The notes under the pieces: model-generated
The model's database searches: none
What the model was told of the DNA's origin: nothing
What the model saw: the letters and a program-made list of their open reading frames with translations, nothing else
Translations under genes and position numbers: made by a program
Shown here: piece by piece, positions 52-4,136 of the stretch
Layout of the letters: each line of letters opens with the position of its first letter
Position numbering within the stretch: the stretch's first letter is position 1
Virus record (IMG/VR): IMGVR_UViG_2706794683_000007
DNA from: a virus
Taxonomy: Duplodnaviria > Heunggongvirae > Uroviricota > Caudoviricetes
Strand: one strand, 5' to 3'
Length of the DNA stretch: 4,136 nucleotides

Positions 52-447
52 TTAAAAAAAGAACAAATGGTAGTGTCCGCTATTGCCAGTACACCTCAAT
101 TGCTCTGCGGCTTCGCTCAGAGCTGGCGTATGTTCCCGGCCTACTGATTCACACAGGTAATCAACGAAACCGGACACCAGTTTTCGTTCGCGAGGCGTGA
201 TCGCCCCACCGACCGGAGTCCAGTAATCGAAACCCAGTTGCAGGAGTTTGAAAAAACGCTTGTGGAATGCGTAGTTACACACACGCTTAAAGTCTGCGTG
301 TATCCACTCACCTATTTTGATTTGATGCAGAAAATCGCAACTCTCCGGCGTCGCCGGGAGAAGTAATCCGGAAGAGGTTTGTTTGACCAGTTGTATATGT
401 GCCATCGGCTTTCTCCGGTGGCACGGTGTTACACAGCAGGAGTTCAA
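52..447 (-). CDS. Hypothetical phage protein (117-131 aa); family not recognised
   Basis: Open minus-strand frame with TAA stop at 52-54. The ATG at 447-445 overlaps the upstream stop (ATGA, 444-447). An internal ATG at 405-403 is preceded by GGAGAAAGCCG, a plausible RBS, so the true start may be 405 (product MAHIQLVKQ...). Same orientation and tight spacing with the upstream gene. Confidence 0.6.
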   Translation of the reverse strand: MNSCCVTPCHRRKPMAHIQLVKQTSSGLLLPATPESCDFLHQIKIGEWIHADFKRVCNYAFHKRFFKLLQLGFDYWTPVGGAITPRERKLVSGFVDYLCESVGREHTPALSEAAEQLRCTGNSGHYHLFFF

Positions 448-731
448 TCCTGCTCAAGATTGTAGATGAGTTTATTCTTCAGCAAAAGCAGAAAACCAGC
501 CTTAAAACCAATCTCTTTCAAAACCCGTAATGATGTGACAAATTCGTCCTCACGCAAAATAAAACCGTCCGTCAGAAGTCCATTACAAAAATAAAATAAC
601 ACAGCACCGCTCTTCCTTTGTTGAGATTGCAAACATCTAATGCGGCAATGGCTGACAATCGCTCCATTCTCAACGCGCACAGCATAGAGGCCATTTTCAC
701 TAAAAATTTCACGCAATTCTTCGATTTTCAT
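444..731 (-). CDS. Hypothetical protein (95 aa); family not recognised
   Basis: ATG at 731-729 preceded by GGAAGGATTCTGAAG (SD-like GGAAGGA, about 8 nt spacing). Stop overlaps the start of the next gene (ATGA). Confidence 0.6.
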   Translation of the reverse strand: MKIEELREIFSENGLYAVRVENGAIVSHCRIRCLQSQQRKSGAVLFYFCNGLLTDGFILREDEFVTSLRVLKEIGFKAGFLLLLKNKLIYNLEQD

Positions 732-812
732 CTTCAGAATCCTTCCAGATAAATAGCTCTCCCCTGTTCGGGGTCCATCCCTCTTCTCCCTGCGCGCTAC
801 TTAAGTGAGTCG

Positions 813-840
813 ATTCTATCTGCGAAGGTGCGCGAATCAA
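813..840 (-). promoter_or_regulatory. Candidate sigma70 promoter for the two-gene operon starting at 731
   Basis: Minus strand reads TTGATT (plus 840-835), a 16 nt spacer, then TAGAAT (plus 818-813). It lies just downstream of the hok terminator and about 80 nt upstream of the ATG at 731. Hexamer match only. Confidence 0.3.
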
Positions 841-849
841 ATTCACCGG

Positions 850-905
850 AAATAAACAACAAAAAACCCGCCGAAACGCTGAGAGATCACAGCGATGGGC
901 GGGTT
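850..905 (-). terminator. Rho-independent terminator at the 3' end of the hok transcript
   Basis: Minus-strand RNA: AACCCGCC (rc of 898-905) pairs with GGCGGGUU (rc of 865-872), an 8 bp GC-rich stem. The loop holds an inner 5 bp stem (877-881 / 890-894). The stem is followed directly by a U-rich tract UUUUGUUGUUUAUUU (rc of 850-864). Confidence 0.6.
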
Positions 906-909
906 AAGT

Positions 910-972
910 GCGGGTGCGTTGAGGATGCCTGACACATCAGAGGTGGGCGGGGATGGGATCAGCTCCCCGCCC
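910..972 (-). promoter_or_regulatory. hok mRNA 3' UTR elements: fbi-like sequence complementary to the mRNA 5' end, plus a GC hairpin
   Basis: Plus 910-924 (GCGGGTGCGTTGAGG) is the inverted complement of plus 1295-1308 (CCTCAAGCACCCGC): 8 + 6 bp with a 1 nt bulge, about 385 nt apart, both inside the predicted hok transcript. A perfect 8 bp inverted repeat GGGCGGGG (945-952) / CCCCGCCC (965-972) sits just 3' of the hok stop. Both resemble the fold-back-inhibition architecture of plasmid R1 hok mRNA. Confidence 0.45.
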
Positions 973-980
973 GGTCACTC

Positions 981-1136
981 TTACTTCCTGGATTCGTAGT
1001 CTACGAAGACAGCGACCTCCGTCTGGCCGGTTCGGATTCGTACCTCACAGAGGTCTTTCCTCGTTACCAGTGCCGTCACTATGACGGTTAAACAGATGAC
1101 GATCAGGGCGATTAACATCGCCTTTTGCTGCTTCAT
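981..1136 (-). CDS. hok: Hok/Gef-family type I toxin (51 aa small membrane protein)
   Basis: Translation is MKQQKAMLIALIVICLTVIVTALVTRKDLCEVRIRTGQTEVAVFVDYESRK: a hydrophobic transmembrane segment followed by the conserved C-x(n)-C periplasmic tail typical of Hok/Gef/RelF. From memory it closely resembles E. coli HokD. AAGGAG lies 9 nt upstream of the ATG at 1136-1134. The ORF track extends the same frame to an ATG at 1193 (70 aa), which I read as leader sequence. Confidence 0.85.
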   Translation of the reverse strand: MKQQKAMLIALIVICLTVIVTALVTRKDLCEVRIRTGQTEVAVFVDYESRK

Positions 1137-1149
1137 AGCCTGCTTCTCC

Positions 1150-1255
1150 TTGCCTTTCGGCATGTAAGAGGCTAACCTACATGTGCAAAGCATGAAATTG
1201 GCCTCAGATTAATGTTAAGCGTCTTGCCGGACGCGTAATGTTAACTGGGGCTTTT
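1150..1255 (+). ncRNA. sok: Putative Sok-like antisense RNA region (position inferred, boundaries uncertain)
   Basis: By analogy with hok/sok loci, a short antisense RNA should be encoded opposite the hok leader. A weak plus-strand promoter candidate is TTGCCT (1150-1155), 17 nt spacer, TAACCT (1173-1178). A transcript from about 1185 would be antisense to the upstream in-frame ATG at 1193 and its SD-like GAGG. No clean terminator was found. Confidence 0.25.
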
Positions 1256-1294
1256 CTCTATCTGCCTTTTGGTGTTCATGCCTGAAGCAGATAG

Positions 1295-1342
1295 CCTCAA
1301 GCACCCGCAGTCATTCTACTTACCTCGCCAATATGAAATCAA
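1295..1342 (-). promoter_or_regulatory. hok promoter and mRNA 5' end (tac-like element)
   Basis: Minus strand reads TTGATT (plus 1342-1337), 18 nt spacer, TAGAAT (plus 1318-1313), giving a predicted start near 1306-1309. The predicted 5' end GCGGGUGCUUGAGGCU resembles the start of R1 hok mRNA as I recall it, and is complementary to the 3' element at 910-924. Confidence 0.45.
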
Positions 1343-1363
1343 TCAGAAAGGTGCCCCATAAAA

Positions 1364-2050
1364 TCACTCCTTCTCTTCTTTACCGTAGTGGAGTTGACCA
1401 ATTTTGATAAGAGGGCGTCCCTGAGATTTGCGGTGTAGATTGGTATCGCGCAGAGAATACACACAGCCACAATATTCCTGCTGATAGAATTTTTCGCGCT
1501 TGCTGATTTCAATCATACGGGACGAGCCGCCCTGCTTGCGCCAGTTATAATCCCAGTACACCATGCCCGGATAATGCGCGACGGCTCGCCGCCCACAGTC
1601 GTTAACCTGCTGCATATTTTTCCAGCGTGAAATGCCCAGTGAACTGCTGATCACACTGAAACCATTTTCAGCGGCGTACAGCGCTGTCCGCTCAAAACGC
1701 ATGTCAAAACACATGGTGCAACGGATCCCTCGTTCGGGCTCCCATTCCATTCCTTTGGCTCGTTCAAACCAGTTGTCTGTGTCGTAATCAGCATCAATAA
1801 ACGGCACGCCGTGTTGTTCAGCAAAGCGAATATTCTCATCCTTACGAATTAAATACTCTTTCTGAGGATGAATGTTCGGGTTGTAGAAAAAGATGGTGTA
1901 GTCGATTCCCGAGGCCTGAAGCGCCTCCATCACCTCACCGGAACATGGAGCACAGCAAGAGTGCAGTAGTAGTTTGTTTGCCCCGTTTGGGAGCTCCAAT
2001 TTGGGCCGTTTGAAATCAGCAACTGTCATAAATATGTTTATTGGGGTCAT
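1364..2050 (-). CDS. queH: QueH-like (DUF208) putative epoxyqueuosine reductase / Fe-S enzyme homolog
   Basis: 228 aa ORF with [11 protein letters not shown] near the N-terminus (Cys32/33/36), CTMC (Cys111/114) and EYCGCVYS near the C-terminus (Cys194/196), which match my recollection of DUF208/QueH conserved cysteine motifs. There is no obvious SD before either the ATG at 2050 or the in-frame ATG at 2029, so the start is uncertain. Family call is from recalled motifs only. Confidence 0.7.
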
Positions 2051-2197
2051 AAAAATATCAAAGAGTGTAGCATTAGAACGGGGCTATCGGAAACAGATGT
2101 GTGACTGCTCCCCGCCCTTTCGGGTGGTCTCCTGATGATTTGAGGGTGCAGAAATCCCTCCGGTTAAGGATTAAATTTTTAACAGTGCTAAATTTAA

Positions 2198-2554
2198 TTA
2201 TTCAGTTCTGGATTTTGTCGCCCTGCGTATCCGCGCTTTCGCGTTACGCTCAATCTGTATCAGCTTTTCTATATTTCTCCGCCTTTCCTGTTCCTCCTGG
2301 CGCAATAGCCTTACATCATCTGCCAGTCTGGTTTCTCTTTTTGCCACAGAGAGCATCCAGTCAAACGGCTCCACAACCGCACCGCAGATTTTACAGCGGA
2401 CCTGACGCTCTTTTTCGTCAACCCGTACAGAGGCGTGATGGCAATATGGTCTTTCCGATGGCTCATAAAGAAAATTAACCTGATTACGAGGGTCATCCTC
2501 TTTTACCGGAAATAAAACGATATTGCTTAACTCATCTTCTGGTTTTATTTCCAT
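2198..2554 (-). CDS. Hypothetical small Zn-ribbon-like protein with basic coiled-coil C-terminus (118 aa)
   Basis: ATG at 2554-2552 is preceded by AAGGAGAGGAGC, a strong SD. Product starts MEIKPEDEL and contains C-H-H ... C-x-x-C (YCHHASVRVDEKERQVRCKICG) followed by an Arg/Glu-rich helical tail. The ORF track's longer form starts at 2611, where ATG abuts the upstream TGA (TGAATG); either start is possible. Confidence 0.7.
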   Translation of the reverse strand: MEIKPEDELSNIVLFPVKEDDPRNQVNFLYEPSERPYCHHASVRVDEKERQVRCKICGAVVEPFDWMLSVAKRETRLADDVRLLRQEEQERRRNIEKLIQIERNAKARIRRATKSRTE

Positions 2555-2611
2555 GCTCCTCTCCTTTGATGCGAATGCCAGCGGTAATTGAAGCCTGATA
2601 GCTAATTTCAT

Positions 2612-3034
2612 TCACAGTATCGCCTCCTGAAAATTACCCTGATAGAAAGCCAGTACACGCTGCATAGCTTCGCTCTTCCGGCACTCGCGACAGATTATAT
2701 TCAGGCGCCTGTCGTAGCGGCGTATTTCTCCGTCAGGTAATGACCAGATAAGGTCCGGATCAACAACAACCGGTTTCCTCACCTTTACTCTCGAGAGTTT
2801 TTTGCGGGCGCTTTGCCAGTCCTTGCGAGCCTGTTCAGACGGGAATAAGCCGTAGCCAGAATTATATACATCACCACTTGCGACCAGTTCTATGCATAAG
2901 CGACCGACAGACGCACGACTGATACCTGTTTCATCTGACAACTGCCGAATCGTGACCCGACCGTCCTGATGCACGAGTTCCACAATTCGCGTCTTCAGTT
3001 CTTCCCGCTGTTCGGGAGTAAAAGGTTTCGCCAT
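2612..3034 (-). CDS. Hypothetical phage protein with N-terminal helix-turn-helix / winged-helix-like segment (140 aa)
   Basis: ATG at 3034-3032 is preceded by CAGGAGGATTT (strong SD), 14 nt after the DnaC-like stop. The segment VTIRQLSDETGISRASVGRLCIELVASG looks like an HTH. The C-terminal half is basic and carries a CRECRK motif. Confidence 0.75.
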   Translation of the reverse strand: MAKPFTPEQREELKTRIVELVHQDGRVTIRQLSDETGISRASVGRLCIELVASGDVYNSGYGLFPSEQARKDWQSARKKLSRVKVRKPVVVDPDLIWSLPDGEIRRYDRRLNIICRECRKSEAMQRVLAFYQGNFQEAIL

Positions 3035-3048
3035 AAATCCTCCTGAAA

Positions 3049-3666
3049 CTACTTAACAACCCTCGAATGGCTAACATTCGGACGCCAGCTCTCCCAGTTA
3101 AAATTCACCCAGCGNNNNNNNNNNNNNNNNNNNNNNNNNNNNNNNNNNNNNNNNNNNNNNNNNNNNNNNNNNNNNNNNNNNNNNNNNNNNNNNNNNNNNN
3201 NNNNNNNGATAGCTGCCGCTAAGTGATTCTTCCCGGTACCAGGTTTTCCGCTGAACGCAAAATTTGTACACCCGGTCATCAGTTCATCGGCGATGGATTT
3301 CGCCTGGCTTAACGCGTATCGCTGGCCGTCGTTCTGCACCTGGTAATTCGCAAACGAGCATTTACGGTGCAACGGCTGGATGCCTGAGCGATTCAGAATT
3401 TTTTCCACCCGCAACTGGCGNNNNNNNNNNNNNNNNNNNNNNNNNNNNNNNNNNNNNNNNNNNNNNNNNNNNNNNNNNNNNNNNNNNNNNNNNNNNNNNN
3501 NNNATTCATTGGCGATGCTGTGTCGAATCACCTGCTCAGGTGTAAAACCCTGCTGACGGAATTTTTCCAGTTCCCGTATCGCCCCGTTAGCGCCCTGCTC
3601 CGTTCGAATCGGTTTTCGCAATGCCTGTCTGAACCGGACCCACTCATGCCAGAGTGTTTCCGGCAA
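3049..3666 (-). CDS. DnaC-like (AAA+, IstB/DnaC family) helicase loader, phage-type; interrupted by two N runs, 5' boundary unresolved
   Basis: Walker A FAFSGKPGTGKNHLAAAI is encoded at about 3208-3261. NRSGIQPLH...CSFANY and the C-terminal WVNFNW both parallel E. coli DnaC as I recall it (NRSGIRPLH, GKPGTGKNHLAAAI, WVIFNW). The ORF-track start at 3666 is a TTG, and the frame is open upstream to a stop at 3733-3735, so the 5' part may belong to the upstream replication gene. N runs at 3115-3207 and 3421-3503 are translated as X. Confidence 0.75.
   Translation of the reverse strand: MPETLWHEWVRFRQALRKPIRTEQGANGAIRELEKFRQQGFTPEQVIRHSIANEXXXXXXXXXXXXXXXXXXXXXXXXXXXXRQLRVEKILNRSGIQPLHRKCSFANYQVQNDGQRYALSQAKSIADELMTGCTNFAFSGKPGTGKNHLAAAIXXXXXXXXXXXXXXXXXXXXXXXXXXXXXXXRWVNFNWESWRPNVSHSRVVK
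3115..3207. other. Run of 93 N (unresolved or masked bases) inside the DnaC-like ORF
   Basis: Directly visible. It replaces the region where Walker B, sensor and arginine-finger motifs would be expected. Confidence 0.99.
3421..3503. other. Run of 83 N (unresolved or masked bases)
   Basis: Directly visible. It lies at the probable junction between the replication-initiator C-terminal region and the DnaC-like N-terminus. Confidence 0.99.
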
Positions 3667-3745
3667 CCAATCGGGCAGCTCAATAGCCTCCGGCTCGAAT
3701 TTTTTAGACGCTCGTTTTTGGCGAGGGGGAGATCAGTATTTAGAT

Positions 3746-3857: not shown

Positions 3858-4136
3858 CCGTTTTTTTTAGAGCTTTTTCCGTTATGACGTTCAAAGTTAG
3901 GTAGAGAAAGCCCTCCGTCATTTTCGACCAGCCATCCAACCTGAATTAACGCATCAGCAAAACCAGACATAAAAGTGATGCGATCTATTGCACTTTTTGT
4001 AACGCCGCGAGCGTTACAATCTGCATTACCGTCTATCATTTGTTGATCCGCCCATGCCCAGAAGCGAATAACCTGAGGTAGCCTGAGTTTAACGGACACT
4101 CCTTCCTGAAATAGAATGGCATCAGAAGGAGCTAAT
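3836..4136 (-). CDS. Phage replication-initiation protein, N-terminal domain (possibly DUF1376/YdaU-like); 5' partial
   Basis: ORF 3836-4099 (GTG at 4099) translates to MSVKLRLPQVIRFWAWADQQMIDG...GWLVENDGGLSLPNFERHNGKSSKKNGRLQTSE. The frame stays open upstream to the window edge (4136), and the SD-like AGGAAGGA abuts the GTG with no spacing, so the true start is probably outside the window. It sits directly upstream of a DnaC-like gene, as in Rac-type replication modules. Confidence 0.55.
   Translation of the reverse strand, partial: LAPSDAILFQEGVSVKLRLPQVIRFWAWADQQMIDGNADCNARGVTKSAIDRITFMSGFADALIQVGWLVENDGGLSLPNFERHNGKSSKKNGRLQTSE

Follow-up and report, generated by a model that had tools for sequence, protein, structure and literature searches.

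The two small genes that follow the helicase loader gene ydaV in this decayed lambdoid prophage, here called gene A and gene B, are probably independent accessory genes of the early operon, apparently co-transcribed with the replication genes and most likely translated separately, which mosaic recombination within the Escherichia/Shigella lineage has brought together. Gene A is, by sequence, the Ren homologue of the prophage, and gene B encodes a predicted zinc-ribbon protein that travels with its own ribosome-binding site. The outcome is one of routine prophage annotation and of ordinary phage mosaicism: gene A gains a name, Ren-like, and what had been taken for a coupled module becomes two mosaic neighbours.

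Both genes lie in the window (the whole stretch of DNA analysed, 4,136 nt), which belongs to a defective Rac-like lambdoid prophage with IS600 ends on either side, and both ORFs are on the minus strand, as read directly from the sequence and the ORF list (Table 1). Together they share 99.8% DNA identity with the RefSeq-annotated genes for WP_001118169.1 and WP_001343130.1, and because of this, and of the matches of their products to DUF977 and PHROG 1621, respectively, A and B are to be regarded on sequence grounds as genuine genes and no chance ORFs. A preliminary description had the anatomy right: a helix-turn-helix (HTH) protein, here of the winged-helix type, precedes a zinc-ribbon protein whose tail is helical. 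A 140-residue HTH ORF stands, as described there, directly behind a DnaC-like gene; it begins 14 nt after the ydaV stop and has its own AGGAGG, and a 118-residue ORF has the pattern C38-H39-H40 ... C54-x-x-C57, a long charged helix and a Shine-Dalgarno sequence before its ATG at 2554. In ydaV there are two N-masked runs (3115-3207 and 3421-3503), and the homologues of its product have IstB_IS21 and Bac_DnaA domains. The QueH gene downstream of gene B appears to be co-transcribed with it and to lie outside the gene B cassette described below; the region between the two genes has no structure beyond chance (z -0.8). A consensus scan of the minus (coding) strand from 1900 to 3110, which is weak evidence, predicted neither a promoter nor a terminator. 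A search of Rfam returned a sok RNA only, located away from genes A and B.

Table 1. Features of the gene A/gene B locus, in coordinates of the window.
Feature	Position	Strand	Remarks
QueH gene, downstream of gene B	1364..2029	-	Pfam QueH 1.9e-65; RefSeq annotation
Mobile gene B cassette	~2112..2584	-	Extent common to copies with different upstream genes
Gene B, 118 aa, PHROG 1621 zinc-ribbon and long helix	2198..2554	-	ATG 2554; stop 2200-2198
Gene B single helix, 55 residues	2204..2368	-	Residues 63-117; AlphaFold2 pLDDT 80-94
Gene B zinc-ribbon core (predicted)	2384..2443	-	C38-x-H40 ... C54-x-x-C57
Gene B N-terminal linear motif	2507..2539	-	E-D-E-L-S-N-I-V-L-F-P, residues 6-16, in acidic tail
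30-nt leader moving with gene B	2555..2584	-	Shine-Dalgarno AAAGGAGAGGAG (2567-2556)
Junction-specific 27 nt, gene A to gene B cassette	2585..2611	-	Homology to B copies in other contexts starts only at 2584
Gene A, 140 aa, DUF977/Ren-like winged-helix	2612..3034	-	ATG 3034; stop TGA 2614-2612
C-terminal motif common to gene A and lambda Ren	2642..2716	-	YD..N..C.ECR.SE.M.RVLAFY, residues 107-131
Gene A winged helix-turn-helix	2846..3016	-	Residues ~7-63; Pfam HTH_24, HTH_IclR and MarR_2 matches
ydaV-gene A gap, 14 nt	3035..3048	-	After TAG 3051-3049; Shine-Dalgarno AGGAGG 3044-3039
ydaV, DnaC-like helicase loader, 3' part	3049..3666	-	RefSeq 'ydaV ATP-binding protein' in 99.8%-identical locus

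Gene A is a plain member of DUF977 (PF06163), a family without an assigned function, and shows no feature that distinguishes it from the other members. Its match to the Pfam model (1.1e-33, 116.5 bits against a cut-off of 22.1, residues 1-136) passes the gathering threshold and covers the model whole (positions 1-134 of 134), and its RefSeq counterpart WP_001118169.1 is named 'DUF977 family protein'. The connection to lambda was found through PHROG 142, 'Ren-like exclusion protein', which is matched by gene A at 2.7e-44 and by lambda Ren at 1.6e-41, and through a direct hhalign comparison of the two proteins (probability 95%, E 3e-8, 90 columns). Lambda Ren itself is below the reach of the Pfam DUF977 model, and the identity between gene A and Ren is low except in a C-terminal motif, for which BLASTP aligned 12 identities in 20 positions with Ren residues 73-92. 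The columns of that motif are invariant in DUF977 alignments and are also aligned to Ren by hhalign. Phage records name the family either LygF, a label used in some Salmonella and coliphage records, or 'Ren-like exclusion protein'; a literature search for 'LygF' showed only its use as a gene name in records of Salmonella Enteritidis.

The location of gene A agrees with this homology, as it directly follows the helicase loader gene in the rightward early operon and the order in lambda is O-P-ren, with a DUF1627 gene placed between ydaV and the DUF977 gene in some relatives. The two proteins thus have in common an N-terminal winged helix, the motif N..ECR.S..M.RVLA.Y and a position behind the loader, whereas they differ in length (140 residues in gene A, 96 in lambda Ren), in an insert of ~30 residues in gene A comprising a basic linker and the segment DPDLIWSLPDGEIRRYD, and in the upstream loader, which is DnaC/IstB-like at gene A and lambda P at ren. 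Gene A is therefore best identified, by sequence, as the Ren homologue of this prophage in the ren position, and so as a named lambdoid protein, which the preliminary description had held neither product to be.

Toothman and Herskowitz are said to have reported in 1980 that Ren gives resistance to Rex exclusion. By analogy with lambda Ren, gene A may be a non-essential helper at the replication stage that would protect the phage from Rex-type exclusion, probably through contacts of its winged helix with exclusion or replication proteins, or with DNA. Lambda ren shares its PR transcript with O and P; its product has been described as 'likely involved in DNA replication', and a two-hybrid assay showed it to interact with Rex proteins (bioRxiv 10.1101/2021.04.19.439022). 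Plaque formation does not depend on it (PMC10695390). At the DNA level, some two-thirds of the complete E. coli genomes carry DUF977, and the link to Ren offers a testable function for this very common prophage gene, which may guard against Rex-type exclusion or assist replication.

Alternatively, gene A might encode no Ren-type helper but a conventional transcription factor of the MarR/IclR type, which would bind specific sites and control genes of the phage or the host. The N-terminal domain is consistent with such a role. AlphaFold2 predicted helices at residues 7-24, 29-36 and 40-53 and a beta wing, all with pLDDT >90, and the best Foldseek matches were to the winged-helix domains of IclR, GntR and MarR proteins, in keeping with the winged-helix Pfam matches; a sequence search against solved structures gave weak winged-helix matches only. 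In addition, the HTH occurs in at least two sequence variants in the family while the C-terminal part is near invariant, a pattern that would be expected if DNA specificity varies and which therefore speaks for a transcription factor. The likeness to regulators is, however, confined to the DNA-binding domain of ~65 residues, whereas the homology to Ren runs from end to end and takes in a C-terminal domain absent from regulators of the MarR/IclR type. Gene A as a whole consists of the winged helix, a basic linker helix and the C-terminal part with the Ren motif. Unlike phage regulators, gene A also occupies a fixed slot within the replication module. We thus consider a conventional transcription factor unlikely and retain the identification of gene A as Ren-like.

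YdaW of the E. coli K-12 Rac prophage is, like gene A, a winged-helix protein, and its gene comes right behind ydaV in prophages of the Rac type; in some prophages it lies between ydaV and the DUF977 gene. The notion that K-12 YdaW is itself a DUF977 protein was discarded, as Pfam assigns it to DUF1627 and BLASTP aligns it with gene A only over the HTH and without significance (E 0.05). YdaW was reported to block the toxicity of RcaT of retron-Sen2 in an overexpression screen (bioRxiv 10.1101/2020.06.22.160242), a result that is not transferable to gene A because the two proteins are of different families.

Gene B belongs to a widespread family of strongly conserved zinc-ribbon proteins that lies outside the curated domain databases: no model for it was found in Pfam or NCBIfam, and it comprises ~1,600 sequence clusters at 50% identity. 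All of the 148 homologues are annotated as 'hypothetical', and no paper was found that names the protein accessions or the PHROG numbers. The RefSeq counterpart, WP_001343130.1, has 118 residues, and the PHROG matches were to 1621 (5.1e-56; residues 20-136 of a longer form of the ORF discussed below against profile positions 1-120 of 134), 8538 (6e-11) and 4865 (6e-9). Gene B has three elements in common with this superfamily: an N-terminal linear motif (NVVxFP), the four CHCC ligands and a helix with the ERNAKAR sequence. In the motif, E6, L9, F15 and P16 are invariant and E8 and N11 nearly so among 45 homologues, and distant members retain NV(I/V)xFP; it is located in an acidic, disordered tail that is modelled with low confidence (pLDDT 57-70 for residues 1-40) and has a net charge of -5 over residues 1-36. 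The putative ligands C38, H40, C54 and C57 are invariant in the same 45 homologues and vary little or not at all in distant members, and the model places a beta hairpin at residues 43-61. The long helix that follows is basic and partly amphipathic, with a net charge of +6, a partial a/d heptad pattern and the near-invariant stretch LR.EE..RR.NI.KLIQIERNAKARIR.

The best match of gene B to a known protein is the TFIIB zinc ribbon (PF08271), with which it shares the ligand pattern C-x-H/C-x-x-C, placed on what is modelled as a small beta hairpin. This match is weak, at 21.1 bits against a Pfam cut-off of 29, with similarly weak PF08271-like matches in 6 of 40 distant family members and a Foldseek match to PDB 1pft at E 0.19 over 35 columns, and the acidic tail and the 55-residue helix have no counterpart in TFIIB. 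The likeness would be one of a shared small fold and not of family membership. Fold searches returned no match below E 0.1 in either PDB or BFVD, a sequence search of the gene B profile against solved structures gave nothing even at E 10, and a Pfam scan of the 40 distant members gave weak zinc-ribbon/coiled-coil noise only, plus one fusion to Ead/Ea22. A bZIP-like reading of the ERNAKAR helix was rejected on inspection, as the helix agrees with the bZIP signature only at the N and at one A, and its basic stretch is C-terminal to the coiled-coil part.

In a count of the two nearest ORFs on either side of gene B at 23 loci from non-Escherichia enterobacterial genera, 20 of the upstream ORFs were NinG, YbcO or RusA, and 16 of the downstream ORFs were Q antiterminators, from three Pfam families. 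Gene B usually occupies the final slot of the nin region, between the gene for a Holliday-junction resolvase and that for the Q antiterminator, and the neighbourhoods in Serratia, Yersinia, Klebsiella, Erwinia and Pluralibacter agree with this placement. At 18 of the 23 loci the gene upstream is a different one, with a stop that overlaps the start of gene B. Local alignments to four copies with other upstream genes begin at 2582-2584 and extend to 2112-2157, and matches to phages span 2112-2582. In addition, the leader is identical in copies of gene B that follow an Ead/Ea22-like gene, a gene for a 178-residue protein or a DUF977 gene. From these alignments gene B is best read as an autonomous cassette, that is, one gene and a 30-nt leader with its own ribosome-binding site.

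As its architecture weakly suggests, the product of gene B may dimerise as a small coiled coil and, in the delayed-early phase, bind either nucleic acid or some conserved host protein; it would act without any need of gene A. A bolder proposal is that gene B represents a new class of small phage effector with NVVxFP as a docking peptide, either an inhibitor of a conserved host protein or defence system or, given its usual place just before Q, a modulator of the switch from early to late expression, and that in Escherichia it was recruited beside the Ren-like gene because both counter exclusion by the host or by prophages; we regard this as rather improbable. Since its position before Q is stereotyped and its motifs are invariant, gene B is nonetheless a reasonable target for functional screens.

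Less probable still, and in our judgement very doubtful, is a dedicated module made up of the two proteins (a regulator and anti-regulator, a toxin-antitoxin pair or an anti-defence pair), in which the zinc-ribbon protein would bind or modulate the winged-helix protein. Both proteins are of a size typical of small two-gene modules and one partner has a DNA-binding fold. Moreover, 888 E. coli genomes have the genes side by side at a constant spacing, with the C-terminal two-thirds of A, the spacer and B kept at 90-97% while both flanks vary. As that block is kept while its surroundings change, A and B may have some local functional linkage. Against a dedicated module, DUF977 was not found within 4 kb of gene B at any of the 23 non-Escherichia loci, and in about half of the B-carrying E. 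coli genomes B likewise occurs without an adjacent DUF977 gene; in E. coli the gene upstream of B is Ead/Ea22-like or another about as often as it is DUF977. Conversely, DUF977 occurs mostly without B. Adjacency of A and B is confined to Escherichia and Shigella; even there, a 57-nt spacer lies between them, and B has a Shine-Dalgarno sequence of its own. Neither protein matched a toxin or antitoxin family in Pfam, NCBIfam or PADLOC, and the PADLOC defence models gave no match for gene B and weak, HTH-level matches to Csa3/CARF for gene A (E 0.002 or worse). Type II toxin-antitoxin systems are expected to show co-inheritance and a promoter of their own ahead of coupled genes; A and B show neither, the promoter scan ahead of the pair being weak evidence.

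These results also bear on the roles first suggested for the pair. Co-occurrence across genomes, the absence of which had been named in advance as speaking against a module, is largely lacking, with 888 adjacent pairs set against 1,679 E. coli genomes with B and 3,617 with DUF977-like DNA. A regulator/anti-regulator or toxin-antitoxin pair is thus unsupported, as B stands without DUF977 at all 23 loci outside Escherichia. The suggestion of a replication accessory or anti-defence function fits gene A, as a Ren homologue in the ren position, but not in the form of a coupled pair. Separate accessory genes brought together by recombination accordingly remain our preferred account of A and B.

The junction between the genes does contain the arrangement on which translational coupling had been proposed, with the stop TGA of gene A (2614-2612) directly abutting an ATG (2611-2609) to give TGAATG at 2609-2614. 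The ORF ending at 2198 encodes 137 residues from this ATG and 118 from ATG 2554, the latter directly preceded by AAAGGAGAGGAGC (2567-2555). That gene B is a 137-residue protein whose translation is coupled to the termination of gene A, or that an A-B fusion arises by read-through of the TGA, is scarcely credible, even with an AGGAGG 11 nt upstream of ATG 2611, a single TGA separating gene A from the long form in the same frame, and the choice of the long form by some gene callers (e.g., P0005). The methionine at ATG 2554 is invariant in 45 of 45 gene B homologues, none of which has the 19-residue extension; the match to the PHROG 1621 profile starts only at residue 20 of the 137-residue form, and the RefSeq models of gene B have 118 residues and a 57-nt spacer after gene A. 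In close relatives the junction reads TGAGTG, so that the ATG at 2611 is a GTG, and the upstream AGGAGG is AGGAGA. The extension is partly encoded within the junction-specific DNA, and ATG 2611 lies outside the gene B cassette. By our estimate, a shared frame would arise by chance one time in three, and an open stretch of 19 codons would be expected in ~40% of cases. The predicted start of gene B is consequently ATG 2554, with its own strong ribosome-binding site, rather than the ATG of TGAATG, and the interval 2585..2611, including that ATG, is most likely non-coding. The natural fusion proteins that were found have the order B then A, and not A then B.

In our analysis of the window, we examined two small ORFs on the minus strand behind the DnaC-like helicase-loader gene ydaV: gene A, encoding a 140-residue DUF977 protein, and gene B, encoding a protein of 118 residues. 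A preliminary description had proposed that they are a pair translationally coupled via TGAATG, and it was confirmed for the ORFs and their motifs, but not for the coupling. Gene A lies tightly behind ydaV (14-nt gap, with AGGAGG before the gene) and its TGA stop abuts an ATG. The second ORF can be read as 137 residues from that ATG or as 118 residues from the ATG at 2554, behind a strong Shine-Dalgarno sequence, and its product has a C-H-H...C-x-x-C motif and a charged helix. Judged from sequence, both are genuine genes, each with a clear family match (table below).

Neither gene had been recognised as a named lambdoid protein, which still holds for the uncharacterised gene B but not for gene A, which has a known lambdoid counterpart in Ren. 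Profile comparisons show gene A to encode a Ren-family winged-helix protein, homologous to Ren of phage lambda. Both proteins match PHROG 142, "Ren-like exclusion protein" (gene A, 2.7e-44; lambda Ren, 1.6e-41), and comparison of a profile built from DUF977 proteins with Ren gave a probability of 95% (E 3e-8), aligning gene A residues 14–132 with Ren residues 4–93. BLASTP alone aligned a common C-terminal motif (NIICRECRKSEAMQRVLAFY versus NLVFKECRQSAAMKRVLAVY). As lambda Ren does not reach the threshold of the Pfam DUF977 model, the link between gene A and Ren rests on the PHROG match and profile comparison made here. The AlphaFold2 model of gene A has a confident winged helix (residues 7–63), a linker helix (67–83) and a less confident C-terminal part, and its fold matches, all to IclR, MarR and GntR regulators, extend no further than their winged-helix domain. 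Thousands of E. coli genomes share, at ~90% conservation, the DNA that encodes the C-terminal two-thirds of the gene A protein, and its helix-turn-helix part has at least two variants, a combination that indicates a mosaic joint within the gene.

The classical phenotype of Ren, reportedly described by Toothman and Herskowitz (1980), is resistance to Rex exclusion. In lambda, ren follows P, just as gene A follows its helicase loader. The ren gene is transcribed from PR together with O and P, its product is described as having a likely role in DNA replication, and the Rex proteins interacted with Ren in a two-hybrid assay (bioRxiv 10.1101/2021.04.19.439022). Ren is dispensable, plaque formation being possible without it (PMC10695390). 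Gene A may act in the replication stage or counter Rex-type exclusion. In the Rac locus of E. coli K-12 (L018), the same slot after ydaV is filled by YdaW (5753–6313), a DUF1627 rather than a DUF977 protein that is a reported blocker of retron-Sen2 RcaT toxicity; in some prophages DUF1627 and DUF977 genes stand in tandem after ydaV.

Several lines of evidence place the start of gene B at the ATG at 2554. The methionine encoded there is the first residue in all 45 aligned homologues, which come from a dozen enterobacterial genera, and the 19-residue extension of the long form is present in none of them; likewise, the PHROG profile begins at residue 20 of the long form. RefSeq models from four independent genomes give gene B 118 residues and a 57-nt spacer after gene A, and three relatives (~91% identity) have TGAGTG at the junction, with the upstream AGGAGG changed to AGGAGA. 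Copies of gene B behind other upstream genes resemble the window only from 2584, 30 nt before the gene B ATG, down to 2112–2157, and this shared part includes the Shine-Dalgarno sequence. The ATG of TGAATG therefore sits within 27 junction-specific bases (2585–2611). The long form of gene B shares the reading frame of gene A, from which a single TGA separates it, and a read-through product would be a 278-residue fusion (2198–3034, minus strand). This arrangement is kept in relatives, but any two genes have a one-in-three chance of sharing a frame and relatives show no variation in the spacer, so the frame carries no weight and is wholly accounted for by chance and shared ancestry.

Our results also do not support the interpretation of the two genes as a functional pair, such as a regulator and anti-regulator or a toxin-antitoxin module. 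Of 5,426 complete E. coli genomes, 1,679 had gene B, 3,617 had DUF977-like DNA and 888 had the two side by side in the arrangement of the window; the genes on both outer sides of adjacent copies differ. At none of 23 non-Escherichia loci of gene B did a DUF977 gene lie within 4 kb of it. From ydaV to QueH, the coding strand has no predicted promoter or terminator. Together, the neighbourhoods, genome counts, varying flanks and lack of predicted signals indicate that genes A and B are cargo of the early operon, where they are probably transcribed together. Their adjacency is a mosaic junction that is frequent but confined to Escherichia and Shigella.

Neighbourhoods from Serratia, Yersinia, Klebsiella, Erwinia and Pluralibacter have gene B as the end of the nin region and lack DUF977 in its vicinity. 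When the two ORFs closest to gene B on either side were scanned with Pfam at the 23 loci, those downstream included 16 Q antiterminators of three different Pfam families and those upstream 20 NinG, YbcO or RusA nucleases. Since the Q antiterminators fall into three unrelated families, and the resolvases also into three, the association is most simply positional. At 18 of these loci the preceding gene, whichever it is, has a stop that overlaps the start of gene B. In Salmonella, DUF977 and gene B are ~2.2 kb apart with several ORFs between, and one metagenomic phage carries gene B in its leftward early region, behind genes for Ead/Ea22 and DUF4406. The commonest E. coli variant of gene B follows an Ead/Ea22-like protein or a 178-residue protein, and in some genomes the Ead/Ea22 N-terminal domain is fused in frame to gene B. 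Placement behind Ead/Ea22-like genes recurs in E. coli Stx phages, Enterobacter phage Tyrion and the metagenomic phage (homologues P0002, P0043 and P0242; loci L012 and L055). On E. coli contigs (proteins P0040, P0042 and P0060), the N-terminal 72–86 residues of gene B are joined to the C-terminal part of a DUF977 protein, in the reverse order to the window; these chimeric ORFs probably arose when prophages recombined.

Gene B is an uncharacterised, widespread cassette gene, whose cassette structure, conserved motifs and stereotyped place before Q were demonstrated here. All 148 close homologues, every one of them from Enterobacterales, carry the annotation hypothetical, the family is not covered by any model in Pfam, NCBIfam or PADLOC, and searches of solved and predicted viral structures gave nothing beyond a weak match to a TFIIB-type zinc ribbon. 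Against 1.84 billion representative proteins the profile had 1,586 matches at E<=0.001 and 248 at E<=1e-10, and far more distant, GC-rich members have the same architecture, some with C-terminal extensions. Invariant residues are E6, L9, F15 and P16 (motif E.ELSNVV.FP), C38, H40, C54 and C57, as is much of LR.EE..RR.NI.KLIQIERNAKARIR in the helix. The model (pLDDT 77) comprises an acidic, low-confidence tail (1–40; net charge -5), a beta hairpin with the four ligands and a single helix (63–117; +6) with a partial heptad pattern. Speculatively, the protein might dimerise via the long helix, its zinc ribbon and basic helix might bind nucleic acid or a conserved host protein, and the NVVxFP peptide might be a docking motif. 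The modest value of these findings lies in the DUF977–Ren link and in how large and well conserved the family of gene B is. Near-identical or related copies on short contigs labelled Collinsella sp. MAG, Ursidibacter maritimus and Chitinophagales MAG (L034, L039 and L040) most likely reflect contamination with enterobacterial DNA or mis-binning.

A prophage of E. coli FDAARGOS_943, a Rac-like lambdoid element by its RefSeq annotation, matches the window at 99.8% identity over 99–3114. Its RefSeq gene order is repressor, Cro/CI-type regulator, YdaT, a 260-residue replication protein, DnaC-like ydaV, DUF977, the hypothetical protein of 118 residues, QueH, hokD, a 95-residue protein, DUF1367, DUF1364 and DUF1133, followed by four tRNA genes and lysis genes. 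Both ends of the window match ends of IS600, and thus the prophage fragment is bounded by IS copies, which cut the DUF1367 and replication genes. The latter, 5' of ydaV, has small indels relative to the intact 260-residue reference gene, one being two extra T within a T run, and its broken ORF fits a decaying prophage or sequencing error. From the IS600 ends and these indels, we regard the window as a fragment of a decayed prophage whose source was probably Shigella or E. coli, with genes A and B both still intact.

Features of the window and the matches that identify them
Feature	Position	Strand	Evidence
Two ends of an IS600 (IS3-family) copy	1–98; 4074–4136		as annotated in NZ_CP065615.1
DUF1367 gene, cut	52–447		
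95-residue ORF between hok and DUF1367	444–731	minus	PHROG 340 (unknown function) 6e-20; RefSeq hypothetical; no match in Pfam search
hok/mok/sok type I toxin-antitoxin locus, complete	981–1306	minus	Pfam, Rfam and ORF list
QueH epoxyqueuosine reductase, full length	1364–2050	minus	Pfam 1.9e-65
Gene B	2554–2198	minus	PHROG 1621, 5.1e-56
Gene A	3034–2612	minus	Pfam DUF977, 1.1e-33, whole model covered
N runs in ydaV	3115–3207; 3421–3503		
Indels in replication-initiator-like gene	3731–3745; 3861–3862		intact reference gene

Two N runs mask parts of the ydaV gene, which is otherwise 100% identical to the reference. Directly after gene B, in the prophage nin region, is the QueH gene, listed in PHROG 3217 as of unknown function. 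At the hok locus, Hok has a Pfam match of 1e-22, a 70-residue Mok-type ORF overlaps hok, and sok RNA is matched by Rfam with 117 bits at 1131–1306.
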